A stretch of 64,000 nucleotides of DNA from an archaeon (GTDB taxonomy: Archaea; Nanobdellota; Nanobdellia; SCGC-AAA011-G17; GW2011-AR17), in NCBI GenBank assembly GCA_043814545.1, contig JBDRJY010000018.1, forward strand, positions 18,046 through 82,045, given 5' to 3'. Positions 15,646 through 64,000 of this stretch are shown here, piece by piece. Position 1 is the stretch's first letter, and each line of letters starts with the position of its first letter. The notes under the pieces were generated by a model. The model had not been told where the DNA came from. It made no database searches and saw only the letters and a list, made by a program, of their open reading frames with translations. Position numbers and translations under genes: made by a program.

Positions 15646-16567
15646 TTTTTCTTGTAAGAGTTTTATGTGCATAATGCCTGATAGTTTTAACAGTTTTGAA
15701 TTTACTTTTTATGTTAACATTGTTTGGCATTACGATAACAACCCTTTTACCTTTCTTTGTTTGTTTGTAAACATTATTTAAGAAATCGTTATATAATTGG
15801 GTTTTTTCTTTGGTGAGTTTAGTTTTTCTACCATAAGGTAAATCTGTTACAATTACATTAAACTTTTCTTTCGCAGTAGTGGCGTCTTGTTTTTTTATCT
15901 TAGCTTTAAGTTTGAAATATTTAAGATTAGTTTTAGCTGCGTCCAACATTCTATCTTCAATGTCCGAACCTATTATTTGAGTCTTCATAAGCTTGGCTTC
16001 AATGAGGATGGCGCCAGTGCCACAGAACGGATCCCATAAAGTTTCTTTAGGTTTGACTTTTGAAAGATTTACTAAAACCTTGGCAATCTTAGCTGAGAAT
16101 GTGCCTGAATAAGCAACAGGTCGTTTCCTTAACGTACGTTCTCTAAATTGATTATTTGTGTCATGTAAAACTTTACCGCAGATAACTTTATTTTTTATAA
16201 AATAAAAGTTGAATAAGGTTTTTGGAGTTGATAAGTTAACTTTAGGTTTTTTAAACTTGGGCCAAATAAGGTCTGCAAGATATTTTTCTTCTAATTGTTT
16301 TTCCCCAAATGTTCTTATACAAAAATCTTTTTCATAATATTTTTGAAAATTAGTTTTTTTAATTTTATCTTCCAGTTCAGAGAATTTACAAATAAATATC
16401 TGTTGTAAAACTTTTTTTGTAAATGCCAAACGCGTGTAATCAATCTGTTTTGTATCAATGAATAGAAATCTATTAAATATTTTCTTTTCTTTTTTGTTTG
16501 TTAAAGATTTTATCTCTTCTTTAGCAAGATCTTTATTTTCCATTGATAGGACAAAGACATGTTTCAT
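15626..16567 (-). CDS. THUMP-domain RNA (guanine-N2) methyltransferase, Trm11/TrmG10-like
   Basis: SAM motif I DPFCGTGAILIEA and motif IV DLPYG (N6/N2-MTase DPPY-like). Start is the internal ATG at 16567, overlapping the upstream stop. Confidence 0.65.
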   Translation of the reverse strand: MKHVFVLSMENKDLAKEEIKSLTNKKEKKIFNRFLFIDTKQIDYTRLAFTKKVLQQIFICKFSELEDKIKKTNFQKYYEKDFCIRTFGEKQLEEKYLADLIWPKFKKPKVNLSTPKTLFNFYFIKNKVICGKVLHDTNNQFRERTLRKRPVAYSGTFSAKIAKVLVNLSKVKPKETLWDPFCGTGAILIEAKLMKTQIIGSDIEDRMLDAAKTNLKYFKLKAKIKKQDATTAKEKFNVIVTDLPYGRKTKLTKEKTQLYNDFLNNVYKQTKKGKRVVIVMPNNVNIKSKFKTVKTIRHYAHKTLTRKIIVLEK

Positions 16568-18144: not shown

Positions 18145-18429
18145 ATGGCAGTTGTCAAAAGAAAACGTAAGGTATCTAAGCAGAAGACATCCAAAACTAA
18201 AGCCACTCGTAAGAAAGCAACTAAGAAAAAAGTTACTTCAAGGAAAGTAGCTAAGAAAAAAGTTACTCCTAAGAAAGTAGCTAAGAAAAAAGTTGCTAAG
18301 AAAAAACCGGTTAAGAAAAAAGTTACTAAAAAGAAAGTAGCAGTTAAGAAAGCGCCGGTTAAAAGAAAACGAGTAGTTAAACGGAAACCCGCTAAAAGTA
18401 AGGTTACCAAACGAAGAAAAAAGAAATAA
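18145..18429 (+). CDS. Highly basic Lys-rich tandem-repeat protein (histone H1/Hc1-like tail)
   Basis: 94 aa, about 45% Lys, with repeated KKKVT(x)KKVA units encoded by a roughly 27-nt DNA tandem repeat. Confidence 0.6.
   Translation: MAVVKRKRKVSKQKTSKTKATRKKATKKKVTSRKVAKKKVTPKKVAKKKVAKKKPVKKKVTKKKVAVKKAPVKRKRVVKRKPAKSKVTKRRKKK
18230..18360 (+). repeat. Tandem about 27-nt coding repeats (aagaaaaaagttact..aagaaagtagct)
   Basis: Visible periodicity of aagaaaaaagtt(a/g)ct within the Lys-rich gene. Confidence 0.5.
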
Positions 18430-30715: not shown

Positions 30716-31417
30716 ATGGAATGGTATGAAGAATTGGATTACGATGAAAATCCTCTTAAGATTGAGACAAAAATTGTTGGAAACGAAGGTGTTATTGACG
30801 AAATTTTTTATTCAATCCTTTCAGGAAACATGTTGTTCCTTGAAGGCGCTGAAGGTATGGGCAAGACAAAGATTCTTGGTGAAATAATCAAAAAGTTTGG
30901 CGGCCGGCGTAAAATAATTTACGTTAACTGTCGAACATTGCAAGCAGGGTTAAATATTGAAAAACTTCTTGTTAACTGTAACGGTCTTTTAGGAAAAATT
31001 TTAAAAAGAAAACCTAAAAATATGATACTTTTGCTTGATGAGATTGAATTTTTATCTAAGACTAACCGTGAACGGATTAAATATTATTTTGATCAAAATT
31101 ATTTACGATCAGTAATCTTTTCAAGTCGCCAGTTTGAAAATGTTGAGCTAGGTGAAAGTATTAAGGAACGGCTTAGTAAAGTGGTCAAGGTTGAATCTCT
31201 TTCAGATTATGAAGCAGTTCAACTAATTCATAATAAGATTGGCACAAACTTGTTATCAGAACGTTTGATTAAAGAAGTATATAAACTTTCAAATAAGAAC
31301 CCACAAATGTTCTTGGACAATTGTAACAAAGTTTGTTCGCAAGCAATAAAAAACCCGGAATTGAAAGAAGATGATGTACAATCAATTGTTTCAAGCCAGG
31401 AGGTAGTAGCACAATGA
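30716..31417 (+). CDS. ExeA/GspA-like AAA+ (AAA_22) ATPase, paralog 1
   Basis: N-terminal NP motif, Walker A GAEGMGKTK, Walker B LLLDEIE. Confidence 0.5.
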   Translation: MEWYEELDYDENPLKIETKIVGNEGVIDEIFYSILSGNMLFLEGAEGMGKTKILGEIIKKFGGRRKIIYVNCRTLQAGLNIEKLLVNCNGLLGKILKRKPKNMILLLDEIEFLSKTNRERIKYYFDQNYLRSVIFSSRQFENVELGESIKERLSKVVKVESLSDYEAVQLIHNKIGTNLLSERLIKEVYKLSNKNPQMFLDNCNKVCSQAIKNPELKEDDVQSIVSSQEVVAQ

Positions 31418-32487
31418 ATAATTTATGGTATAAACAACTAGGATTTAATAATAACCCGTTTAGTATTAAACCAGCTATTTTTAGCGATGAATTGCTTGGC
31501 CTTGACAAGCTTATGGACGAAATTGCTTATCATATTTTAACAAATAAATTAATTTTTATTGAGGGTAATTTTGGAGAAGGTAAAACTACTATGTTGAAAC
31601 GTTTGATAAAAGACTTCGGCGGTAAAAAACAAGTTATCTATTTCAGTTGCAACCGTCTTGATAGTAGGTTAGACGTTGACAGGTTGTTAACTGGACGTTA
31701 TGGTTTTTTGGGAAAGTTGTTTAACAAAAAAGGTAAGGACATGATTCTTTTACTTGACGAAGCTCAAGGTCTTACAAAGAAAGACGCTGAAAACTTGTAT
31801 TCACACTTTTTAGGCGGTTACTTTAAGTCTATAATCTTTGTTGGTGTAGAATATAATAAAGAAAACTTTACTGACAAGGTTAACAAAGAGATGAAACTTT
31901 TCACGTTACCTCAGCTAAATAAAGAAGATGCAGTACAAATTATTAAAAAACGTGCTGGCGACTTTGAAATGTTAACTGGTGACGTTGTTGAATTAATCTT
32001 TGAAAGATCAGGTAAAAATGTACGTCGTATGTTAAAAAACTGTGAAATGCTTTGTAGGAGAGCATATTCATTTGGTGAAACTGGGGTTACGGCAAAACTT
32101 ATTGAAGAAATGTTGCCTGATGTTAAGAAAAAAGTTAAGAAAGTATTAAAGGTAAGTAAAAAGAAAATTTCAGATGCAAGTCAAAAGTCGGAAAAACCAG
32201 ATGTTTTAATTGAAGAGATAAAAGTTAAAAAAACTAAAAAGTTTGTTCCTAAAAAGAAAAAAGAAGTTGAAGAAATCTTAGAGGAAGCAGGTATTCCTGC
32301 AAATTCTAAAAAGAAAGAGATTAAAATCGAAATTATTGAAGAAGAAGATGATGACGATGATTTAGAAGATGATCAAGAAATTTTCAACAAAAAGCAGGCA
32401 AATCTGGAAAAGATAGCTCCACATGCAATGGAAGAAGCCTTGAATCGTCCAACTGAAGAACTTTTATCTGATGAACAGTACTATTAA
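31414..32487 (+). CDS. ExeA/GspA-like AAA+ (AAA_22) ATPase, paralog 2, with K/E/D-rich C-terminal tail
   Basis: LGFNNNPFSIKP N-terminus (ExeA-like NPF), Walker A GNFGEGKTT, Walker B LLLDEAQ; ATGA overlap with paralog 1. Confidence 0.55.
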   Translation: MNNLWYKQLGFNNNPFSIKPAIFSDELLGLDKLMDEIAYHILTNKLIFIEGNFGEGKTTMLKRLIKDFGGKKQVIYFSCNRLDSRLDVDRLLTGRYGFLGKLFNKKGKDMILLLDEAQGLTKKDAENLYSHFLGGYFKSIIFVGVEYNKENFTDKVNKEMKLFTLPQLNKEDAVQIIKKRAGDFEMLTGDVVELIFERSGKNVRRMLKNCEMLCRRAYSFGETGVTAKLIEEMLPDVKKKVKKVLKVSKKKISDASQKSEKPDVLIEEIKVKKTKKFVPKKKKEVEEILEEAGIPANSKKKEIKIEIIEEEDDDDDLEDDQEIFNKKQANLEKIAPHAMEEALNRPTEELLSDEQYY

Positions 32488-36687: not shown

Positions 36688-37158
36688 TTATTTAGAATAA
36701 ATAACAGAATGTTTATGATTACTTTTATCACTCATAGGTATACCTGCAAGTTCACCTAATTTTTGAATTTTATGATTAGTCATATTAGATTTTCTAATAA
36801 AAAATACTTCGACATCATATGTATCTTGAATAAATTTTTCGTTTCTATATGCAAGATTAAGTTCGTCTTTAGAAAATGGTTTTCCGTCTGGTTCTCTATC
36901 AAGCCATTTTGGAATTGGATAATTATCTTCGACAAAAACAATAAAATCAAAATCTGAATATAAACTTCCTCGAAATCCTGGTGGTTCATATTTTCCAAAA
37001 GTTCCTTTAACAGATGAACCCATAAGAATAATTTTTAGAATTTGATTATTTGGTAATAACTTCTTTTTAATTTTTTCAATAGCCTGTTTTCTTCATAAAT
37101 CTTGTTTTTCTTTAGGAAAAATTGTTTTTAGTGGTCTGGATTTTAAATGTTCTTCCAT
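36688..37158 (-). pseudogene. Minimal nucleotidyltransferase (MNT, Pol-beta superfamily) interrupted by an in-frame TGA
   Basis: Minus-strand frame reads MEEHLKSRPLKTIFPKEKQDL-TGA(37093-37095)-RKQAIEKIKKKLLPNNQILKIILMGSSVKGTFGKYEPPGFRGSLYSDFDFIVFV...; a GSx5-10SDxD NTase motif. The N-terminal helix needed for the fold lies upstream of the listed ATG (37023) and is cut by the stop. Confidence 0.5.
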
Positions 37159-54178: not shown

Positions 54179-54622
54179 ATGAAAATGCCTAATGCCAAAA
54201 TTCAGATTGATCAATATACATTAATATTGTATAAAGAATATTTAATTGACAAAAGGTTAGTTGAAGAAGATAATAAAAGATATAATGGCATAACAACAAT
54301 TGATTTCAAAGCAATGATATCGCAACGACCTTTTGACGAATTAGTTTTGCGAGATATTTTAGACGCTCCAATTGTAATTTATAGAAATAATGTTTATGGT
54401 TTGCTTATATTAGAAACAGAAGTTACAAACCGTACAGGCCAATGCCCAAAACACGAAAGACCTTACACTCAGATTACATTAACACCAGATCAAGGCGTAA
54501 TAACAGATATAGAACGTTTATCTTTCTTAACAAATTATGAAGAACACAAGTTTGACGACCATGTTATTTATACTCACGTTAAAAACTTTGATTTAGAGTT
54601 AAGAATAAATTTTACTCAATAA
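54179..54622 (+). CDS. hypothetical protein
   Basis: 147-aa ORF. Confidence 0.4.
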   Translation: MKMPNAKIQIDQYTLILYKEYLIDKRLVEEDNKRYNGITTIDFKAMISQRPFDELVLRDILDAPIVIYRNNVYGLLILETEVTNRTGQCPKHERPYTQITLTPDQGVITDIERLSFLTNYEEHKFDDHVIYTHVKNFDLELRINFTQ

Positions 54623-57491
54623 GAATAGCTGGTTTTGAAGGTGAAGCTGTTTTAGCTTTTTGTTCTTGAGAATCTTCTGATAATATAATTACAATTTCTG
54701 AATTAAAATATTTTTTTAGATCTTTGCTTAGCTTAGTTATAGAATCCAGTTCAGTTTTCTGGTCTAAGACTGTTTCAGGAATTTTTGTAGGATCTTTTAC
54801 TAAAACAGGTATAAGTTTAGTAATATCTTTACCATATTTTTTCATATCCGTTTTCATTATAGATTGCGTAAGAATTTTAACATCTCTTGTTTCTTCCAAC
54901 ATTTCCTTGAACATTGTAAAAAACTCGTATTTCCATTTTGGACTAATTATGTAAGTTATCTTTTTGGGTTTATCTACCTTGATTAATTTTAAGACGGTAC
55001 GAGTATCGGCTTTTAAGTTATCAACCATATCATCAATGTATTCTAAGGTTAAGTTAACTTTAGTAGAATCTGACTTTGGCCAGTCCGATATGGAAACATA
55101 ATCTTTAAACCCATGTTTTTCAAAAAGTTCTTCGGCATAATGCGGTATTAAAGGTGTTAACAACTTAATCCATTTTAAGCTAATATAATTGTTAAAGATA
55201 AAAATATCTTCTTCACTTCCCTTAGTTAAAGCTTTGTTATATATTGACGGTATTTCATGTAACACAACGTTTGAATAAGTTCTAAGATCCATTTGTGTTA
55301 AGGCTTTAGTAGCTTTTTCAATTTGCTTTTCAAACCTGGAACATAAAGAAAGTAAAAGGTCAGGCATTTTGCCTTTGGCTTTAGACTTTGCACAGTTTTC
55401 TAAAATGGTATAAACATTTTCAACATGTTTTTTCGCTTTTTCAACTTCGCTTGATTCCCAGTTTAAAGTACTTTCAACAGATGTAGAGTTGCAAAGGTAA
55501 GACCTGAACGCGTCAGCGCCGTATTTTTTGTTTAGATCAAATAAAGTTACAACGTTTCCTTTAGACTTAGACATTTTATGACCTTCGCTTAAAATCATTC
55601 CGTGGAAAGTTATTTTCTTTGGCCATGTTTTCTTTGGGAAAATTGCAGTATGTGCAAAAATCATGAACGATAAATGGTTAGATAAATGTGCTTGGAAAGT
55701 GTGCCTATGGTCAACAGGATACCAGTAATCAAAATTCTTTTTTAATTCTTTCAACTCTTTTTCTTCAATCTTGGTTTTCTTTGCAACATCTTTTATGTTA
55801 CCTTCACCTAAATACACATAATCGAAAAATTCTAAAGGTAAATTGTTAGGTTTAAGTTTATATTCTTGTACAAGATTTTGGATAGTGTACAACGACATGT
55901 AAATAGTTGAATCTGATAAAGATTCTATGACCCATTCTTTGTTAAACGGTAGTTTTGTACCTAAACCTCTTCTTCTTGCGCAAGGTCTTTTATCTAGCCA
56001 AGCAAAAACATCTTCAAACTGTTTCCTATATTTATCAGGAACAATTTCCATCTGTTTCAAACATTTGTTAGCTTCGATTTTCCAACCTTTAGCATTAAAA
56101 TCTAAGAACCATTGATCATCTAACACTGCAACAATAATATCTCCGCCGTCACGCGACTGTGCGTGCCTAGAAGTTTCATAAAAAATGTCAGCTTCACCTT
56201 TCTTAATCAAATCATTTTTAATTTCATCTTTAGCTTTTGTTACAGGCATACCTGTGTACTTACCGCAAGTGTCCATCATAACTCCAGTGTGAAAACCAAC
56301 CTTGTAAATTTCTTGAGTTGCTTTGGTTAACAAATCGTGCTGGTCAACAGATTTGATTTTAAGTTTTTTACAAATTTCTACTGCTGGAAAATCTCCGTAA
56401 CCTTTTGATTTTATTATTGGCAGAAGTTTTATTTTTTTGATCTCTTCATAATTAAATTTATATTTTTTTGCAAGTTGATCATTATCTTGTAACTCTTTCA
56501 ACGAGATCCAGTCGAAAGGCGCATCGCTTGGCACAGATGTTACTAAACCTGTTCCAATCTTAGCATCACAATGTAGTGAAGGTAAAATTATAATCTTACG
56601 ATTGATTACAGGAGCAGTACAAGTTTTACCGATAAGATCTTTACCTTTAATGTTTTCTAAAATCTTAACTTTCTTATCTTGATACTTTAACTTTTTAACA
56701 CATTCTTTGCTAACAATCCATCTCTCATCGCCAACTTGCGCTTTAACATATTCAATGTCAGGATGAACCCACATATTAGTTTGCCCATACATTGTTTCAG
56801 GTCTTAATGTGGCAGCAACAATGTAAGAATCTTCAAATTTAAATTTTAACAAAGTAAATTCTTGTTTGTCAACAGGGTTAGTATCGCCATCAGCAATATC
56901 ATCTTCGCCAACTGCAGAGTTTAATGATAAGCTGTATAGGACAGGATACTTGCCTTGAACAAGATAACCTTTTTCTTTGTACTTATGGAACTGCCATTCA
57001 ACCAGTTTTTGGTGAATGGAATCATTAGAAGTAAAAACTCGTGTCCAATCAACGCCTAAACCTAAGGTAGAAAACTCTGAAATCATTTTAGGCGCAAAAA
57101 AATCTACAATCTTTTGCGGTTCTTCGAACGATTTAATAATTTTATTAATTTCTTTAGAATCTTTCACATAAGCTTTAACATAACTTTTGTACAACTCAAT
57201 TTTCTTTTTATCTTTATTTTTTATAGCTAGACTAATACCTAAGACTGGTGTACCGGAAACGTGGAAAGCTAATGGAAACAAAACATTTTTGCCAGTCATC
57301 CTTAAGAAACGAGAATAAACATCAGCTTCAGTAACAACACGCGCATGCCCAATATGTAAACTGCCAGAAATGTACGGGTAAGGCACTGTCATGAAAAACT
57401 TTTCTTTAGATTTGTCAATCTCAGGTTCAAAAATCTTATCAGATGCCCACTTCTTTTGCCATTTATCTTGGACTTTCTTAAAGCTAACCAT
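54612..57491 (-). CDS. leuS: Leucyl-tRNA synthetase, archaeal type
   Basis: HIGH motif (PYPYISGSLHIGHARV), KMSKS, CP1 editing domain; 959 aa. Confidence 0.95.
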   Translation of the reverse strand: MVSFKKVQDKWQKKWASDKIFEPEIDKSKEKFFMTVPYPYISGSLHIGHARVVTEADVYSRFLRMTGKNVLFPLAFHVSGTPVLGISLAIKNKDKKKIELYKSYVKAYVKDSKEINKIIKSFEEPQKIVDFFAPKMISEFSTLGLGVDWTRVFTSNDSIHQKLVEWQFHKYKEKGYLVQGKYPVLYSLSLNSAVGEDDIADGDTNPVDKQEFTLLKFKFEDSYIVAATLRPETMYGQTNMWVHPDIEYVKAQVGDERWIVSKECVKKLKYQDKKVKILENIKGKDLIGKTCTAPVINRKIIILPSLHCDAKIGTGLVTSVPSDAPFDWISLKELQDNDQLAKKYKFNYEEIKKIKLLPIIKSKGYGDFPAVEICKKLKIKSVDQHDLLTKATQEIYKVGFHTGVMMDTCGKYTGMPVTKAKDEIKNDLIKKGEADIFYETSRHAQSRDGGDIIVAVLDDQWFLDFNAKGWKIEANKCLKQMEIVPDKYRKQFEDVFAWLDKRPCARRRGLGTKLPFNKEWVIESLSDSTIYMSLYTIQNLVQEYKLKPNNLPLEFFDYVYLGEGNIKDVAKKTKIEEKELKELKKNFDYWYPVDHRHTFQAHLSNHLSFMIFAHTAIFPKKTWPKKITFHGMILSEGHKMSKSKGNVVTLFDLNKKYGADAFRSYLCNSTSVESTLNWESSEVEKAKKHVENVYTILENCAKSKAKGKMPDLLLSLCSRFEKQIEKATKALTQMDLRTYSNVVLHEIPSIYNKALTKGSEEDIFIFNNYISLKWIKLLTPLIPHYAEELFEKHGFKDYVSISDWPKSDSTKVNLTLEYIDDMVDNLKADTRTVLKLIKVDKPKKITYIISPKWKYEFFTMFKEMLEETRDVKILTQSIMKTDMKKYGKDITKLIPVLVKDPTKIPETVLDQKTELDSITKLSKDLKKYFNSEIVIILSEDSQEQKAKTASPSKPAILIE

Positions 57492-58059
57492 TACCTTTAA
57501 TTCGTAGTTTTTTGGTATTTTTAAGTGTTTTTATTAGATATAGGACTAAAGCAATAATGGGCAGTAACCCGAATAAGTAATACCATTTAGCATTATCCCT
57601 TACTTTTACGCCGGTGGCTTGACCAGTGATTGGGCTCACACTAACAGTTTCAATGTTAGTGAAAGAAGGTTTTATTTCTGTACCACCTTTAATGTTAATT
57701 GAATCTGGTATAGCAATAGTGTTTACTATGTTTAGTGCTTGTTGTGTTTCACTTAATTCTGTAATATAAATTAAATTAGAATAATTTCCGTCTGTTAAGT
57801 AAGGTTCTGATTTTATTGTTATTAATTTTTTATCTGTTATGTTTAAACTAAAATCATTTTCACTGAACGTGATAAAATCTGAATCACTTGTTAATTTAAT
57901 ATTAACATTTTCGTTAAGATTATTGAAAACCATTAATTCTCTTTCTACGAAATCTCCTCTTTGTACAGTTCCAAAATCTAAATTGGTAGGCGTTATCGCT
58001 AACGCGTTAACTGTAGGTAACAAAATTAAAAAAATTAAAAAAAAATGTTTCATTTTCAA
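57484..58059 (-). CDS. Secreted protein with C-terminal TM anchor
   Basis: Signal peptide; C-terminal YLFGLLPIIALVLYLIKTLKNTKKLRIK. Confidence 0.5.
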   Translation of the reverse strand: MKMKHFFLIFLILLPTVNALAITPTNLDFGTVQRGDFVERELMVFNNLNENVNIKLTSDSDFITFSENDFSLNITDKKLITIKSEPYLTDGNYSNLIYITELSETQQALNIVNTIAIPDSINIKGGTEIKPSFTNIETVSVSPITGQATGVKVRDNAKWYYLFGLLPIIALVLYLIKTLKNTKKLRIKGNG

Positions 58060-59318
58060 CTTACCACTGACGTAATTTGCAACGCTCCAACATAATTGTC
58101 AGACTTGGTTTGTGCCGGCACATTTATCCTTAACATGAGTTCGCTTTGCGCTTGTGGTAAAAGGTTTAAGTCCAGTTCAGTACCTGTTTTACTTAATGTA
58201 AACCATTCGTTGTTAAAATAATATTCAACATTTTCCACGTTAAGTGTACCGCTCTGTCCAACTAAATCCGTACCTTGAACATTTATGTCCACGCCAGTGT
58301 TACCAGTGTTACTTATTGTTAAGATTTGTTCAGTTGAAATTTCTCCAGGGTTTAAAGTTGAAAAATCTAGCTCGCTTGTGTCTAAAACAGTTGAAATGAT
58401 TGCCAAATATTTAAAGCTTGTAGAGTTTTGTGTTTGCAATTTTCCGTCGGAAACAGTAGCTGTTATTTGGTAATCTCCTGCTAAATCAGAATATTGCATG
58501 TTAAACGAACCGTTAAATAAACTTTGCGTTGCACTAGAGTTAGAATTAAAGTTTAATTCCACAATTTGGTTGTTTACTTCAATTTGCACTTCAGTCACAT
58601 CATCAAAACCGTTAAGGTCTTCAATCATTATTTCGACTTCAACAGTTTTAGGCGAGTTGATGTTAGGCATGATTTGTACACCTTCTTCTTGAGAATTGTC
58701 CGGGCTTAAAACAATTTCAATTATTTCTGGAGCTGAATTATTTATCGTTATAATTAATATTACATCTTCTTCAGATGCTTCTTGGATATTACCAGAGCCA
58801 GGGTTAGATTCTTGTTCAGCCCAATTGTCGATAGTATTAGGTAAAGAATAATTTATTCTCGCTAAAGAATTACCGTTACCATTAGCACCATAAGATGTGT
58901 TATAAGTAAAAGTTTCTGTATAATTTCCGTTACTTAACACAATTGTATCTTCTGTAGCTAACGTAAAATAACCGTCGACAGCTGTATAAGTTCCGTCTGT
59001 ATTATCCCAAACACCATCACCGTTTCCCCAGGCAGTTTCAAAACTTTCTAAATCTTCATCGTCAGTGTCAATCAACTCACGCGCAATAACAATATATTCT
59101 CCAGGACTAATCGTTACGTCTTCAAAATTGTATCCATCCAAAGTCCAAACAGTTAAGTCCACACCACTTTCACCATTGTTATAAATTTCCACCCATTCAC
59201 CATCAGTCTCAGATTCAGTTTGCGTCGGCGCGTACATAACTTCAGTTACTATTACTTCTGCAGCAACATAATGTACGCATAACATTAAAGCTAACATTAA
59301 CAACATAATTTTTTTCAT
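58056..59318 (-). CDS. Secreted beta-rich surface protein
   Basis: Start at the internal ATG at 59318 (MKKIMLLMLALMLCVHYVAAEV signal peptide) preceded by SD AAGGAGGT; the ORF-track N-terminal extension is unlikely. Confidence 0.55.
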   Translation of the reverse strand: MKKIMLLMLALMLCVHYVAAEVIVTEVMYAPTQTESETDGEWVEIYNNGESGVDLTVWTLDGYNFEDVTISPGEYIVIARELIDTDDEDLESFETAWGNGDGVWDNTDGTYTAVDGYFTLATEDTIVLSNGNYTETFTYNTSYGANGNGNSLARINYSLPNTIDNWAEQESNPGSGNIQEASEEDVILIITINNSAPEIIEIVLSPDNSQEEGVQIMPNINSPKTVEVEIMIEDLNGFDDVTEVQIEVNNQIVELNFNSNSSATQSLFNGSFNMQYSDLAGDYQITATVSDGKLQTQNSTSFKYLAIISTVLDTSELDFSTLNPGEISTEQILTISNTGNTGVDINVQGTDLVGQSGTLNVENVEYYFNNEWFTLSKTGTELDLNLLPQAQSELMLRINVPAQTKSDNYVGALQITSVVS

Positions 59319-59486
59319 ATTATTAACCTCCTTTTTGTTAAAATAAATTTTAGGATTAAAGTTTAAAACTGATTCTGAGAAAAAACATGTAATCTTAGAT
59401 CTAATACCGTGAATATTAGTTGTTTTACCATAAACCTGCAAAATAGTAAATTATAAAAACCCCACGAAACTTAAAAAATCCATATA

Positions 59487-59561
59487 GGATCCGTAGCATA
59501 GTTTGGATGATGCGTTGGCCTTCTAAGCCAAAGATCCAGGGTTCAAATCCCTGCGGATCCA
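59487..59561 (+). tRNA. tRNA-Arg (anticodon UCU)
   Basis: GGATCCG acceptor pairs with CGGATCC; anticodon loop CTTCTAA; T-loop GGTTCAAATCC. Confidence 0.85.
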
Positions 59562-59564
59562 TAT

Positions 59565-59637
59565 GCTGGCGTGCCCAAGCGGTTAAGGGGATCGGCTGCA
59601 ACCCGGTTATTCCCAGGTTCGAGTCCTGGCGCCAGCT
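59565..59637 (+). tRNA. tRNA-Cys (anticodon GCA)
   Basis: GCTGGCG acceptor pairs with CGCCAGC plus U73 discriminator; anticodon loop CTGCAAC; T-loop GGTTCGAGTCC. Confidence 0.85.
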
Positions 59638-59640
59638 TTT
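59627..59640 (+). repeat. attL-like 14-nt direct repeat TGGCGCCAGCTTTT (3' end of tRNA-Cys)
   Basis: Exact copy at 60778-60791. Confidence 0.55.
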
Positions 59641-59655
59641 CTTATTTTTTTACTA
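59638..59655 (+). terminator. Oligo-T tract after tRNA-Cys
   Basis: ttttcttatttttttact. Confidence 0.3.
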
Positions 59656-59744
59656 CTTCTGAGTAATAGCAAAAGCGAAAGATTTAAATATGATTAATTC
59701 ACCAAAATATTAAGAAATTTACTTAAAAGGAGAACAAAAATAAA

Positions 59745-60038
59745 ATGAACACAATTGAACATTTCAAAGCGTTAAACCAAATCCGAAAAGAAGATGGTTT
59801 ATTGGAAGCTTTAAAATCTGATGCAGTTCAAACTGCAATAAGACATCCTGCTTTACTTGCTTTACCTTTCTATTTAGGTAAAGTTGAAGCTCAACCATTG
59901 AATGAAGGATATGCTGAAGCAACAGTTGGTTCTGATGGTGAGTATACACGATTTGTCAGACGAGAACCAGGTAGTGATTTAACAATCATTGAAGAAAGAC
60001 AAGAAGATGGTTCTTGGATAAAAAGGGCTGAATATTAA
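59745..60038 (+). CDS. hypothetical protein (islet)
   Basis: 97-aa ORF, GC-richer codon usage. Confidence 0.45.
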   Translation: MNTIEHFKALNQIRKEDGLLEALKSDAVQTAIRHPALLALPFYLGKVEAQPLNEGYAEATVGSDGEYTRFVRREPGSDLTIIEERQEDGSWIKRAEY

Positions 60039-60053
60039 GAAAATTTAATTAAA

Positions 60054-60728
60054 ATGGGATTACAAAAATTATTAACCGGAGCTAGACAACATGTAACAGA
60101 TTCAGTTGGTCTTTTTGTAGTTTCAACACCCTTAGGTGCTTTTTTAGAAAATGTTTTAGCAGGAATGAGTGATGAAGTTTCTTTTAAATCGAGAGCCATA
60201 GTTGGTGGACTTTACTTAGGTGGATTGGGAGGAATAATGGGTTACTTTAGAGATAAATCTAGAAAACTCTTTCATGTGACAGATAAAACAAAAGAAGGAT
60301 ATCAACAAATACATGATATGGCTTATATTGCAACAGTAACAGCTATTGTAAATCCTTTAATCTATTTAGGTGCAGGCGCTAAAGATGCAAAAGAAATTGC
60401 ACTTGGTACTGGTTTCGCAACATTAACAGCTCTTTGTACTGGAGGTATTATGGGGTATTCAGTTGATCTTTTTAGAGATCTTACAGGATATAAAAAATCT
60501 GAAAGAATTCCACAAAGTATTAGCTATGCCCGACCATATTTTAAAAAGAGTTTAGCAGCTGGAATACTTACTACTTCAATAGGATTAGCAGGACTTGTTT
60601 ATCATTTAACTCCCGATCAACCTGAAGAAATAAATGAAGAGACTATTAGTTCTCTTGAAACAATTTCAGACAATAATGATTTGCCAAATACAAGTTATGA
60701 AACTATAGATATAATTATTCAAGAATAA
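60054..60728 (+). CDS. Polytopic membrane protein, possibly AlaE/YgaW-family small exporter-like
   Basis: 4-5 TM helices; the pattern V.DS...VVS...G.FLE..L.GMS.E.SF.SR.I.G......GG..GYFRD resembles bacterial AlaE as recalled from memory; needs profile confirmation. Confidence 0.35.
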   Translation: MGLQKLLTGARQHVTDSVGLFVVSTPLGAFLENVLAGMSDEVSFKSRAIVGGLYLGGLGGIMGYFRDKSRKLFHVTDKTKEGYQQIHDMAYIATVTAIVNPLIYLGAGAKDAKEIALGTGFATLTALCTGGIMGYSVDLFRDLTGYKKSERIPQSISYARPYFKKSLAAGILTTSIGLAGLVYHLTPDQPEEINEETISSLETISDNNDLPNTSYETIDIIIQE

Positions 60729-60777
60729 ATTTCTTATTTTTAATTTAAGCCCTTAACTACCCAACTTGGCTAACGCT

Positions 60778-60791
60778 TGGCGCCAGCTTTT
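60778..60791 (+). repeat. attR-like 14-nt direct repeat TGGCGCCAGCTTTT
   Basis: Exact copy of 59627-59640. Confidence 0.55.
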
Positions 60792-60835
60792 AAAACCAAG
60801 AAGATTTATATATCTCTTTAATATTAACATAATTT

Positions 60836-61021
60836 ATGAACATTATAAGCAGATTAATAACTGGAATTCTTGCTATTATCCTAGGATCATATTTAATAAT
60901 AATTAGTTCTTCTGACCTTTGGATATTATTTTATGGAATACCAATTGTTCTTATAGGAATTTTCATTTTATTTAATAAAAAAGAAGATAATATTGAGAAG
61001 ATCAAAGGAGGAAAAAAATGA
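60836..61021 (+). CDS. small membrane protein
   Basis: Two TM helices; 61 aa. Confidence 0.35.
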   Translation: MNIISRLITGILAIILGSYLIIISSSDLWILFYGIPIVLIGIFILFNKKEDNIEKIKGGKK

Positions 61022-61341
61022 CAGATATAATTGTTACAACTGGGAATGAAATTCCAGGAAAAAAGACTATAAAAGTTTTAGGTGTTGTCAAAGGGAGCAC
61101 AGTAAGAGCAAGAAATATTGGCAGAGATATTGGTGCTGGACTTAAGAGTATTATTGGTGGAGAGGTTAAAACATATACAGCTATGACAATGAATGCGAGA
61201 GACGAAGCATATAATAGAATGGTTAATGATGCATTGAATATGAAAGCTGATGCAATTATTGGTGTACGATTTACAACTTCAATGATAATGACTGGAGCTT
61301 CTGAAATGCTTGCATATGGAACTGCGATTAAAACCAATTAA
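61018..61341 (+). CDS. YbjQ/UPF0145 (DUF74) family protein
   Basis: GVVKGSTVRARNIGRDIGAGLKSIIGGEV...ADAIIGVRF typical of UPF0145. Confidence 0.7.
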   Translation: MTDIIVTTGNEIPGKKTIKVLGVVKGSTVRARNIGRDIGAGLKSIIGGEVKTYTAMTMNARDEAYNRMVNDALNMKADAIIGVRFTTSMIMTGASEMLAYGTAIKTN

Positions 61342-61432
61342 CATTCTATAAACTTTACAATAGAATAAAAAGACATAGCCAAAGACCAATTAACAACTTA
61401 GAATATAAAATAAAAAAATAAAAAAAAGAAAT

Positions 61433-63364
61433 TTATTTCTTAAACAGCATTCTCAGGAAATACAAAGCAACTAATACTAAGATTATATCGCCTAAAATCC
61501 ATAACAACTGTTTATTTTCTTGGAACCAACCTTCACCTGAAACTTCTGCAGATTCAGCAATGTTTACAGTAACAAGTTCTGTATTTTCTGAACCGTCAGC
61601 GCTAGTCGCAGTAACAGACATTGAATGCCTACCCGTTACACCATCCATTAATTCAAGGTATATGTAAGCATGGTACGAATCGCCTGCTCCAAGTGTATTA
61701 ATTTGTTCAATACCTAGAACATTAGCCCACATTGAAACGTCACCAACGCTTAGCAATACAGTATCTTTACCATTTCCATCGTTTGTAACGGTGATAGGTA
61801 TGGTAACCGTGGTAGAACCTACAGCAACGTTGTACTCGTCTGAGCTAGTTTTAAGTGTAACCATACTGGTTATTGCGTTGTTAGAATTTGCTACGTTAGC
61901 AACATTTGAACAACTGTCAACATCTAGTTCAAACAATTCTGAAACATACTCGTCACCGTCATCGTAGTATACGATAACTTCAACGTATAGGTTACCAGCA
62001 GTTAAATCGTCGGTAAGCTCTATTTCAAATGTTTTTTTGTAATCATTGTCACTGTCTGAATAGTCGCCAAGGTCAAACTTAGCAGAATCTATATCAATTC
62101 CAAGCTGTGAACTTTTTACACGAATGTAAACATCGTCTTCGTTTTTCTCGCCAACGTTTTCAACTTCAACAGTCACTTCAAGAATGTCGCCGCAAACAAG
62201 TCCTTCTTCCTGACTAAAATCAACACCAGTGATAGCTACAGAATGACTTTCCCTTTTTAGGTCAAGTTCAACTGTTTCATAATCGCAGTTTTGATCTTCG
62301 TCACCGTCTTCGTAAGCTCTAACATACAATACAATGTTATCGCCTTCATCGAATTCAGCATTAAAAGGAATTTCTAAATCAAGGTTAAAATTTTCTTTAT
62401 CGTTATCTTTGATTTCTGTGTCTGCACTTTCAACACTAGCTAATTCTTCATCAGTGTCTAAGTTGTACAAAATAGCTTCAACAATAACATCTTGGTCGTC
62501 GTCAGCATCGTTTTGAACTTTTACATTGATTTCGATGGTTTCACCAGGTTTGTAATCGTCACCGTTGTCAGGATCTTCGATTGAAACTTCCAAGTCACCA
62601 ACTAGACCATCATTACACATTACAGGTTCAACTTGTAAGCTGAATGAAATGGACTGTGAATCTAGAGTGCTGGTTGTAACAACAAAGTTACCTGTGTACA
62701 AGTCAACATCCATTTTATCTGCAATGGTTAAGTCAACTGTAACAGTTTCTGAATCACCAGGTGCTAGTTCTAAAGCATTAACATCTGTAAACTCAAAGGT
62801 TAAAAGTTCGCCATCATTATCTTCGTCATTACCATCATATACAATTGTCCATGTGTCTAGAACTGTAGAACCAGTGTTCTCAATTATAAACTCTAAGTCA
62901 GCATATGAATCATCTGCCTGTTCAATATTCCATTCAGTTTCAGATAAGCTGAAAGATTCAACTTCGTTAACTGTAACAGTATAATCTACTTCAACAGGTG
63001 TTGTACCGTCTGCAGCGTCAGAAACGCTTAGCGTACCAACATAGTTGCCAGCTAATAAATCAGAAGCAGGTATGGTAACATCAAAAGTTTGTGTCTGAGA
63101 TGTTCCAACTAAAAGGTCAGTAAGATCTTCAATTGTTGGATCATCGATTGTGTAATCACCGTTTACTAAATCAGTGCTTACAAAGTTAACTGTTGCAATG
63201 GTGTCAAGACCAGTGTTATTCACTGTAACCGACACAGTTACTGTATCTCCTGGGTTGCCTGCGACAGTATCAATAGAATCAACTATCAAGTCAGCATCCG
63301 CAGCTGCTATTAAAGAAACAGCTAGAATTACAATAACCAACAAGCTTGTCAGTAATTTTTTCAT
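61433..63364 (-). CDS. Large secreted surface (S-layer-like) protein with CARDB-like repeats and C-terminal TM plus basic tail
   Basis: Signal peptide, Asp/Thr/Val-rich beta repeats, C-terminal LLWILGDIILVLVALYFLRMLFKK. Confidence 0.6.
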   Translation of the reverse strand: MKKLLTSLLVIVILAVSLIAAADADLIVDSIDTVAGNPGDTVTVSVTVNNTGLDTIATVNFVSTDLVNGDYTIDDPTIEDLTDLLVGTSQTQTFDVTIPASDLLAGNYVGTLSVSDAADGTTPVEVDYTVTVNEVESFSLSETEWNIEQADDSYADLEFIIENTGSTVLDTWTIVYDGNDEDNDGELLTFEFTDVNALELAPGDSETVTVDLTIADKMDVDLYTGNFVVTTSTLDSQSISFSLQVEPVMCNDGLVGDLEVSIEDPDNGDDYKPGETIEINVKVQNDADDDQDVIVEAILYNLDTDEELASVESADTEIKDNDKENFNLDLEIPFNAEFDEGDNIVLYVRAYEDGDEDQNCDYETVELDLKRESHSVAITGVDFSQEEGLVCGDILEVTVEVENVGEKNEDDVYIRVKSSQLGIDIDSAKFDLGDYSDSDNDYKKTFEIELTDDLTAGNLYVEVIVYYDDGDEYVSELFELDVDSCSNVANVANSNNAITSMVTLKTSSDEYNVAVGSTTVTIPITVTNDGNGKDTVLLSVGDVSMWANVLGIEQINTLGAGDSYHAYIYLELMDGVTGRHSMSVTATSADGSENTELVTVNIAESAEVSGEGWFQENKQLLWILGDIILVLVALYFLRMLFKK

Positions 63365-63498
63365 TTTTTGGTATACCCCCTAATTATTACTAATTAGTTG
63401 GACTTTGAGATAAAGTGATTATATATAAACGTTACTGTTATATCCTCTATTTTAGAGTCTATTATGGGGTTTTAGAGCTTAACTATTAAGAATTCTGG

Positions 63499-63515
63499 GG
63501 TTTTTGCCTTTGGCT
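63499..63515 (-). promoter_or_regulatory. Third copy of GGTTTTTGCCTTTGGCT, upstream of the surface-protein gene
   Basis: Identical 17-mer to 51806-51822; about 135 nt 5' of the ATG at 63364 on the minus strand. Confidence 0.4.
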
Positions 63516-63519
63516 GGGG

Positions 63520-64000
63520 CTATATCTTCAAACTTAGAACTTTAGACTGGCCTTCAACCATTGAAACGCCGTAAATTGTGTGCGCTTCAGAAATAATAGC
63601 ATCATTGTGAGAGATTACTATATATTGCGCATGATCCGAATATTTTGCTATTAGCCTTGATAGTAAGGCAGAATTTTGTTTATCCAATGCTGCATCAACT
63701 TCGTCTAATAGATAGAATGGTGCAGGTGAAAATTCTTGGACAGCGAAAATGAATGCTAAGGCAGCCATGGTTTTTTCTCCACCAGACAAACTTTTGATGT
63801 CTAAAGCTTTTGTTCCCGTAAGTTTAACCTGGATATCTACACCGCCTTGGAACGGATCCTCTTCATTTTCTAATAATAAATGTGCCTCACCTTTACTGGA
63901 TAAACTAGCAAAAATTTCTTTGAAATGTTTTGCAAGGTCTTTAAACGTTTTCATGAAAATATCTTTCTTCTTTGATTCTATCTCAAACATAAGTTCTAAA
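63520..64000 (-). CDS. SMC/Rad50-family ABC ATPase, C-terminal part (gene continues past the window end)
   Basis: ABC signature LSGGEKT, Walker B LLDEVDAALD, H-loop ISHN. Confidence 0.7.
   Translation of the reverse strand, partial: LELMFEIESKKKDIFMKTFKDLAKHFKEIFASLSSKGEAHLLLENEEDPFQGGVDIQVKLTGTKALDIKSLSGGEKTMAALAFIFAVQEFSPAPFYLLDEVDAALDKQNSALLSRLIAKYSDHAQYIVISHNDAIISEAHTIYGVSMVEGQSKVLSLKI

Follow-up and report, generated by a model that had tools for sequence, protein, structure and literature searches.

Does a 14-nucleotide (nt) sequence that closes an archaeal tRNA-Cys gene and recurs 1.15 kb downstream mark the two ends of a mobile element, and if so, what kind of element carries no integrase? 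The locus lies in a 64,000-nt stretch of contig JBDRJY010000018.1 (the window, by which we mean this whole stretch), which is ordinary chromosome with genes for FtsZ, Cdc6, ribosomal protein L10, leucyl-tRNA synthetase (LeuRS) and SMC; relatives of its LeuRS are found in Woesearchaeota and Nanoarchaeota, that is, among the DPANN archaea. The mobile elements and gene-exchange routes of this group are poorly known; the genomes are tiny and there are no cultures. An initial annotation of the window had read the repeat as the attL and attR attachment (att) sites of a discrete, GC-richer islet inserted at the 3' end of tRNA-Cys. Our analysis suggests, with a probability of roughly 55%, that a site-specific recombination system acting at the tRNA-Cys 3' end in AT-rich, Woesearchaeota-like DPANN archaea has the 14-mer as its core, and that the segment between its copies is an integrase-less module with both att-type ends kept. 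The locus is most likely the pared-down remainder of a mobile element with a tRNA as its target, rather than a GC-rich or bacterial island, and its structure is more complex than a single 1.15-kb insertion.

A GC-rich repeat at the 3' end of tRNA-Cys

The features of the locus, in window coordinates, are the following (ORF, open reading frame; aa, amino acids).

59487..59561, plus strand: tRNA-Arg(TCT) (ARAGORN; Rfam 69.5 bits)
59565..59637, plus strand: tRNA-Cys(GCA) (ARAGORN; Rfam 57.4 bits, full-length model match)
59627..59640, plus strand: left core copy, TGGCGCCAGCTTTT, containing TGGCGCCA
59641..59744, plus strand: segment b, with the oligo-T run after the tRNA, a TATA-like box (AAAGATTTAAATAT) and the leader of the 97-aa gene
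59745..60038, plus strand: gene for an orphan 97-aa protein (N-terminal helix, C-terminal beta region)
60054..60728, plus strand: gene for a polytopic membrane protein of 224 aa, AlaE family (PF06610; Pfam)
60746..60777, plus strand: arm c, TAAGCCCTTAACTACCCAACTTGGCTAACGCT, the 32 nt left of the right core
60778..60791, plus strand: right core copy, TGGCGCCAGCTTTT
60792..61341, plus strand: segment d, with a TATA-like box, the 61-aa membrane peptide gene and the YbjQ-family gene
60836-61021, plus strand: ORF for the 61-aa membrane peptide, in segment d
61018-61341, plus strand: gene for a YbjQ-family protein (Pfam YbjQ_1, 119.5 bits)

An exact-match search of the window returned the 14-mer at the two places first reported, 59627-59640 and 60778-60791, on the plus strand in both cases and exactly twice in the 64 kb. 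No third site was present in the window even with up to two mismatches allowed, and the 14-mer is not a common motif there. Because ARAGORN and Rfam both end tRNA-Cys at 59637, the left copy resolves into the 11 terminal nt of the tRNA (3 nt of the T stem, the 3' acceptor strand CGCCAGC and the discriminator U) followed by TTT, just as the initial annotation had described it. The tRNA-Cys(GCA) gene is intact, with discriminator U73 and no encoded CCA, and lies directly 3' of tRNA-Arg(TCT), with the genes for a protein with an LTD domain and for LeuRS as its further upstream neighbors. It is at the 3' end of this gene that the system considered here would act, as target or as point of crossover.

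Exact repeats of this length are common in so AT-rich a window, where 135 14-mers recur, and this is the ground on which TGGCGCCAGCTTTT might be taken for a chance repeat without biological meaning. It is, however, the GC-richest of them and the only GC-rich one (0.57, against at most 0.43 for all others); the expected number of second copies in a window, estimated from base composition, is about 5e-5, and none of 100 dinucleotide-preserving shuffles reached two or more sites with up to two mismatches allowed. The same core also forms the junction in two other genomes. The shuffles and the junction comparisons with the relative J2 described below effectively refute a chance origin, leaving it a negligible likelihood, in agreement with what had been argued from the repeat itself. 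The center of the core is a perfect 8-nt palindrome, TGGCGCCA, which occurs three times in the 64 kb; the third occurrence, at 16009, lies within an RNA/DNA-methyltransferase ORF and is unrelated.

Exchange of flanks at the core in related genomes

Three related genomes were recovered for comparison (J1, J2 and N), and five core sites in three genomes were counted across the window and its relatives. J1 (L024) comes from Joint Genome Institute (JGI) sample 3300032731 and shares 89% DNA identity with window 54491-59647 (5.2 kb), covering LeuRS (91% identical in aa), the LTD protein, tRNA-Arg and tRNA-Cys; its contig ends 81 nt after the tRNA. J2 is represented by three independent assemblies (L004, L005 and L006) from two JGI samples, one of them the J1 sample, and one Logan run; it is 88% identical to window 61327-63525, which holds the A2M-like gene, and carries a 98-aa homologue of the 97-aa protein. 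N (L023) is a 599-kb contig of GCA_054040335.1 with a LeuRS that is 80% identical, and it is collinear with the window over about 20 kb. The left context of LTD protein, tRNA-Arg and tRNA-Cys is common to the window, J1 and N, with the tRNA pair present in both relatives.

With a denoting the tRNA body, b, c and d the segments of the window, and d' the downstream flank of J1 and N, the five sites read a-core-b and c-core-d in the window, a-core-d' in J1, c-core-b in J2 and a-core-d' in N. Homology of J1 and N with the window, as delimited by blastn, ends at 59647, seven bases past the core. After TGGCGCCAGCTTT, both carry the different flank d', which reads A[T/C]CTTA[C/T]TTGGATAGTT[A/T]AGAGCTTAACG followed by a TATA box and is 87% conserved between them. 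In J2 the junction lies upstream of the 98-aa gene, with an S-adenosylmethionine (SAM)-methyltransferase gene just upstream of it, and reads ...TAAGCTCATAACTACCCAACTTGGCTAACACT-TGGCGCCAGCTTTT-ATTATTTTAACTACTCCTAAGTAATAGC.... Its left side matches arm c (60746-60777) and the core, with 47 nt that are 93.6% identical to window 60746-60792, and its right side matches segment b and the 97-aa gene at 82% over 416 nt (window 59627-60038). In J2, then, the sequence that stands left of the window's right copy meets the one that stands right of its left copy, with the 14-mer as the exact point of joining, and because three independent assemblies show this junction it is not chimeric.

Left and right flanks therefore combine independently across the five core sites, with the break always at the 14-mer, which marks the 14-mer as a recombination crossover point. 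This flank exchange is the strongest support for the att-site reading. It upholds that part of the initial proposal which placed a recombination site at the tRNA-Cys 3' end; the other part, a single simple insertion of 1.15 kb, is not supported. As a test for an attP-type junction, the position of c-core-b was inspected in L004, L005 and L006; it sits chromosomally, between the methyltransferase gene and the A2M-like gene, and may be a tandem junction rather than a circle.

The extent of the variable DNA tells further against a discrete insertion bounded by the two repeats.

59648..61406, no strand assigned: block without counterpart in the outgroup N (blastn homology limits 59647 and 61407)

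This window-specific block runs beyond the right repeat and takes in the 61-aa and YbjQ genes. Segment d is a second variable module, outside the repeats, that is missing in N and represented in L004 by its last 15 nt only. Between the LTD/tRNA side and the A2M-like gene, the window carries the genes for the 97-aa, AlaE-like, 61-aa and YbjQ proteins, N carries TYW3, and J2 carries the methyltransferase gene, the 98-aa gene and a stump of YbjQ. The order in N is tRNA-Cys, d', TYW3 and then directly the A2M-like gene, and all four window genes are missing from that interval. The three related genomes all differ in what follows tRNA-Cys, and the outer flanks are conserved.

The YbjQ stump in J2 consists of the gene's final 15 nt (ATTAAAACCAACTAA, its last codons), 19 nt after the stop codon of the 98-aa gene. 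The J2 lineage therefore once had the window order, from the 97-aa gene through YbjQ to the A2M-like gene; a deletion between two (A)ATTAAAA microhomologies then removed the AlaE-like gene, arm c with its core, the 61-aa gene and the greater part of YbjQ. Taken together, the window and J2 call for a common ancestor with no fewer than three core copies and two c arms, or else for independent gains; whichever ancestry holds, the pattern is modular. As d' is common to N and J1, it may be the older neighbor of tRNA-Cys. If d' is ancestral, the window's a-core-b junction could be a deletion between two core copies, and hence a deletion scar rather than an insertion.

Several observations in the relatives concern the same slot. 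TYW3, a tRNA wybutosine-synthesis gene, fills the position directly after tRNA-Cys in N (L023 7459-7959), and no homologue of it is present in the 64-kb window. A candidate decayed core, TGCTTCCAGCTT, between TYW3 and the A2M-like gene of N matches at chance level and was rejected. On the other side of the locus, L004 3417-5844, beside the A2M-like gene, holds genes for a CrtO-like acyltransferase, a DUF2080 peptide and a DDE_Tnp_1_6 transposase in the place taken by SMC in the window, an arrangement that looks like an insertion-sequence-associated rearrangement.

Arm c, motif M and the readings of the locus

Arm c is present as a single copy in the window. Its minus strand holds a motif, M (TTGGGTAGTTAAGGGCTTAA), 13 nt from the palindrome, and a counterpart of M, TTGGATAGTT[A/T]AGAGCTTAA, lies on the tRNA-sense strand of d' in J1 and N, 12 nt from the palindrome. 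The arm c copy is identical to the J1 copy at 18 of 20 positions and to the N copy at 17 of 20, with no shift in register; 300 shuffles yielded no score as high against the J1 copy, and the comparison with N gave p = 0.007. In all fetched loci M is found only beside the palindrome, and the spacer between the two has diverged (7 of 12 nt identical) while the distance stays at 12-13 nt in both orientations. Given the inverted orientation of the match, arm c with the core is an inverted paralogue of the tRNA-Cys 3' end and its downstream flank, a relationship that a simple attL/attR picture does not predict. A possible homology of leader b with flank d' past their initial ~12 nt was also considered; MAFFT aligns the two, but a local-alignment shuffle test gave no significance.

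A quite different account is that arm c and the core are a conserved cis-element placed downstream of some genes, such as a terminator, a processing signal or an operator mimicking a tRNA 3' end with its oligo-T, so that the identity with the tRNA end would reflect shared function and not recombination. The position is suggestive, directly after the stop codons and T-runs of the AlaE-like gene in the window and of the methyltransferase gene in L004; the element ends in TTTT ahead of TATA-like boxes, and it is 91-94% conserved between the window and J2. Against this, arm c with the core has no stable or unusual fold on either strand relative to shuffles (z-scores +0.1 to +1.05) and no Rfam match, it occurs once per genome fragment examined and at this locus only, and the exchange of flanks across the core between genomes would be left unexplained. 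We regard a cis-element as very unlikely. A second tRNA, a split-tRNA half or another RNA gene in arm c and the core was also considered and set aside, with no signal from ARAGORN, Rfam or folding, and the same tests lent no support to a resemblance by eye between the minus strand and the 5' part of tRNA-Cys (GCTGGCG..CCAAGCG..TTA).

Under the recombination-module reading, the module would consist of the tRNA-proximal leader b, the 97-aa gene, the AlaE-like gene and arm c, with an att-type junction at each end. At the left end it would supply or retain the last 11 nt of the tRNA and the oligo-T terminator, leaving tRNA-Cys intact, and at the right end the second core copy would stand beside the 32-nt arm c. 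We infer that a dedicated site-specific recombinase, probably of the tyrosine type, acts at the core and that the module was once mobile; with no gene for it found here, the enzyme would either have been lost (a decayed element) or act in trans, as for the cis-mobilizable elements (CIMEs) discussed below. The locus would then be a short tandem array of modules, of which this module is possibly a part, and a further module between tRNA-Cys and the 97-aa module, ending in the methyltransferase gene and an arm c, would give the c-core-b junction of J2. A palindromic overlap would let a tyrosine recombinase join sites in either orientation, which could account for the inverted arm and for M on either side of the core. 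Engineered lox and FRT sites with symmetric spacers recombine in either orientation.

Some of the same evidence would also fit a rearrangement hotspot with no mobile element at all, in which an inverted duplication of the tRNA-Cys 3' end and its flank was followed by homologous or microhomology recombination of the host that shuffled, deleted and inverted chromosomal genes, the window's left junction being a deletion scar. The paralogue of d' on the minus strand of arm c is what such a duplication would leave, the palindrome allows pairing in either orientation, and L004 provides a plain microhomology deletion, from the AlaE-like gene through most of YbjQ, at this very locus. No integrase was found, the GC content is native-like, AlaE-like genes elsewhere are single chromosomal genes, and the sharing of d' by L023 and L024 suggests that d', not b, is ancestral beside tRNA-Cys. 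Homologous recombination of the RadA type would have 13-14 nt of identity to work on, which is short, yet each of the five junctions breaks exactly at the core. The hotspot would face the same demand for core copies and c arms in an ancestor or for independent gains, in a modular pattern typical of site-specific systems, and the fixed spacing of M despite its diverged spacer resembles a protein-binding arm. We therefore judge a hotspot possible but rather unlikely.

The following points weigh against the recombination module that we prefer. Pfam, PHROG and NCBIfam detected no integrase or recombinase in the islet or in the four genes of the variable block. Nor was one found when 20 ORFs of middle size from the window and the gene lists for L023, L024 and L004 were inspected; that none lies between the repeats had been noted from the outset. 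Exact-pattern scans of genome, metagenome and viral collections for arm c with the core, or for the palindrome with M, gave no further sites, and a free circular form was not observed. A clean empty site (tRNA-Cys and core joined to the window's right flank, a-core-d) was seen in no genome examined. The initial annotation had proposed looking for such a site in relatives, and N answers in part: it is without the four genes, but TYW3 stands there and no a-core-d junction is found. The sample of core sites comprises three genomes, and the contigs of J1 and J2 have no overlap and reading frames that do not fit directly, so that joining L024 to L004 was abandoned and their adjacency is assumed. 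Arm c is identical at 29 of 32 nt beside the core in J2, which is close to the genome-wide identity of the window and J2 (88-89%), and its conservation alone is no proof of constraint.

Base composition is also native-like. The islet has a GC content of 0.321 against a window mean of 0.323, which ranks it at the 48th percentile among stretches of the same size, and in trinucleotide profile it is typical of the window, so the GC-richer character first ascribed to it is not borne out and a GC-rich island is ruled out. GC content at third codon positions (GC3) points the other way and was counted in favor of the module: at 0.111 for the AlaE-like gene, 0.143 for the 97-aa gene and 0.161 for the 61-aa gene, these are the second, fourth and sixth lowest of 74 window ORFs (mean 0.227, sd 0.046), and the islet genes lie in the low tail. 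The lowest value of all, 0.080, belongs to an unannotated 111-aa ORF at 36688-37023.

The exact-pattern scans returned only chance matches in GC-rich bacteria and an unrelated tRNA-Cys from a member of the Woesearchaeota (L020, JBDRFS010000019.1, 1681-1800, minus strand). The latter has the same acceptor and T arms and an intron after the anticodon, was missed by ARAGORN, and has a downstream flank unrelated to the window.

Cargo genes and comparison with known systems

The ORF list and Pfam confirm that two genes only, of 97 and 224 aa, lie between the core copies, as the initial annotation had it; their products are identical to MFH1456316/7, two entries from an 87.5-kb contig of an NCBI metagenome-assembled genome. 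The 97-aa protein has no Pfam, PHROG or NCBIfam match, and its single close homologue is the 98-aa protein of J2 (72% identical). A profile search of 1.84 billion representatives gave eight other matches, all weak: seven small unannotated proteins and one repeat protein of 979 aa (P0149). The latter contains nine tandem repeats that are nearly identical to one another, and every one of them matches residues 25-55 of the 97-aa protein (a helix of the AL.HALRDPA type). A single-sequence AlphaFold2 model of the 97-aa protein, with a predicted local distance difference test score of 56, was too poor for use.

By its profile match the 224-aa protein belongs to the AlaE family (PF06610). It matches the Pfam AlaE profile with 29 bits (gathering cut-off 25), residues 10-143 aligning to positions 6-137 of 141, and has four hydrophobic segments in the matched region with an extra hydrophobic segment and an acidic tail at its C-terminus; it has no NCBIfam (equivalog) match. 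Like the Escherichia coli L-alanine exporter AlaE (YgaW), it covers nearly the whole profile above the cut-off with four hydrophobic segments; unlike that protein, it is about 75 aa longer, with the fifth segment and the acidic tail, and its close relatives are all archaeal. Of the 24 homologues found, those carrying names are all archaeal (Woesearchaeota, Promethearchaeota or simply 'archaeon'). The bacterial best hits that had been expected for both islet proteins thus did not materialize, and a bacterial origin of the cargo is ruled out by the archaeal AlaE matches and the orphan status of the 97-aa protein.

In six other DPANN-type contigs the AlaE-like gene stands in six unrelated contexts: beside V-ATPase and CDC48 genes, beside ThiF, among toxin-antitoxin genes, beside RIO1, after the S12-S7 ribosomal protein genes, and in a four-paralogue tandem near conjugation-like genes. 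Neither tRNA-Cys nor the core was found near it in any of the six, so a conserved association with tRNA-Cys or with core-like repeats was discarded. With a different context in each contig, the gene therefore relocates often. The best AlaE match outside this genome is 78% identical, whereas LeuRS matches reach at most 64% apart from L024 and L023, a difference that hints at transfer among DPANN archaea. The tandem belongs to GCA_974502265.1, contig CDDLML010000010.1 (L001/L002 7391-16621), where four packed paralogues of 202, 206, 208 and 212 aa have no repeats between them in L002. They adjoin genes for a SAM-methyltransferase, a VirB4/TraC-like ATPase, TrbC/type IV secretion system (T4SS)-pilin-like and PrgI-like proteins, Fic and MazE, and by this gene content the region may be a conjugation-type element in a metagenome-assembled genome with archaeal-type AlaE genes.

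Among known systems, the locus resembles elements integrated at tRNA 3' ends, including decayed archaeal ones. The likeness lies in a direct repeat of the tRNA's 3'-terminal nt with the tRNA intact at one end, in non-housekeeping cargo, and in gene content at the tRNA that varies among close relatives. The locus departs from them in having no integrase gene or fragment within or next to it (among the variable-block genes and the 20 window ORFs), in its small size (1.15 kb, two genes, a 14-nt core), in showing no empty attB in the genomes compared, in a composition that is atypical in its low GC3 only, and in the inverted flank copy of its distal arm. It also differs from elements of the Sulfolobus spindle-shaped virus (SSV) type, in which fragments of a split integrase flank the insertion: the ORFs abutting the cores here encode the 97-aa protein, the AlaE-like protein and the 61-aa peptide, and none of them matches an integrase. 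Viral contigs yielded no relatives, phage and plasmid records gave nothing relevant apart from a 68% match to YbjQ, and no integrase-bearing relative of the module emerged from the genome, metagenome and viral scans.

CIMEs are defined by the retention of attL and attR and the absence of integration and transfer genes (PMC5704250). The locus shows this combination, and the likeness extends to the tandem accretion in Firmicutes of ICEs (integrative and conjugative elements) and of IMEs (integrative and mobilizable elements), with att-type junctions that have no recombination or transfer gene; the J2 c-core-b junction would fit a tandem arrangement. CIMEs, however, belong to bacteria, usually run to several kb and have demonstrably arisen from ICEs, whereas here the putative module belongs to a DPANN-type archaeon and no parent element was found. 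Tyrosine-recombinase sites with a symmetric overlap, such as engineered lox and FRT sites, offer a parallel to the palindrome TGGCGCCA at the core center and to M on either side of it, in opposite orientations at different sites; the resemblance may serve as a lead only.

A bolder possibility is that in this DPANN lineage the tRNA-Cys 3' end is the docking site of an integron-like array of small, promoter-carrying, integrase-less cassettes (TYW3; the methyltransferase gene; the 97-aa and AlaE-like genes; the 61-aa and YbjQ genes), each bounded by the palindromic core and M. A symmetric core would let a trans-acting recombinase join both orientations, again with M on either side. The resemblance to integron cassettes with their attI and attC sites is in the modules of one or two genes that follow each other at a single docking site, with a recombination-site-like end and no recombinase inside. 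The differences are several: no IntI with attI is adjacent, the upstream neighbors being tRNA-Arg, the LTD protein and LeuRS; there is no attC-type hairpin, since arm c with the core folds no better than shuffles on either strand; the modules have their own TATA-like promoters; and two or three modules are seen. We consider a cassette array improbable; if it were true, it would be an exchange system not described for archaea.

Measured against these systems, the locus is a known kind of event, gene capture and decay at a tRNA gene, in a new example from a little-studied archaeal group, and the palindromic core and the inverted arm are its two unusual details. With its 14-nt core, the 8-nt palindrome therein and the 20-nt motif of the arm, it provides a recombination site that is concretely defined by sequence, at which close relatives exchanged small accessory genes, and which could be used to search DPANN genomes for the missing recombinase and to test whether integrase-less modules move in trans. 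Should the locus be no more than a decayed element, it would be an ordinary case of genes captured at a tRNA gene.

Some smaller features of the locus and of the wider window complete the description. The TATA-like box AAAGATTTAAATAT in segment b may act as a promoter. A 23-nt inverted repeat, 91% complementary, pairs 60724-60746 with 61415-61437, in the oligo-T stretches after the stop codons of the AlaE-like and A2M-like genes; a similar T-run follows tRNA-Cys at 59637-59652, and these oligo-T regions are probably a shared terminator-type sequence. Further away, window 18221-18320 holds three to four copies of a 30-nt tandem repeat (..GTAGCTAAGAAAAAAGTTAC..) within a 98-aa ORF. Finally, two adjacent genes for AAA_14 / NB-ARC-type ATPases of 233 and 357 aa, at 30716-32487, are possibly a defence-type pair.

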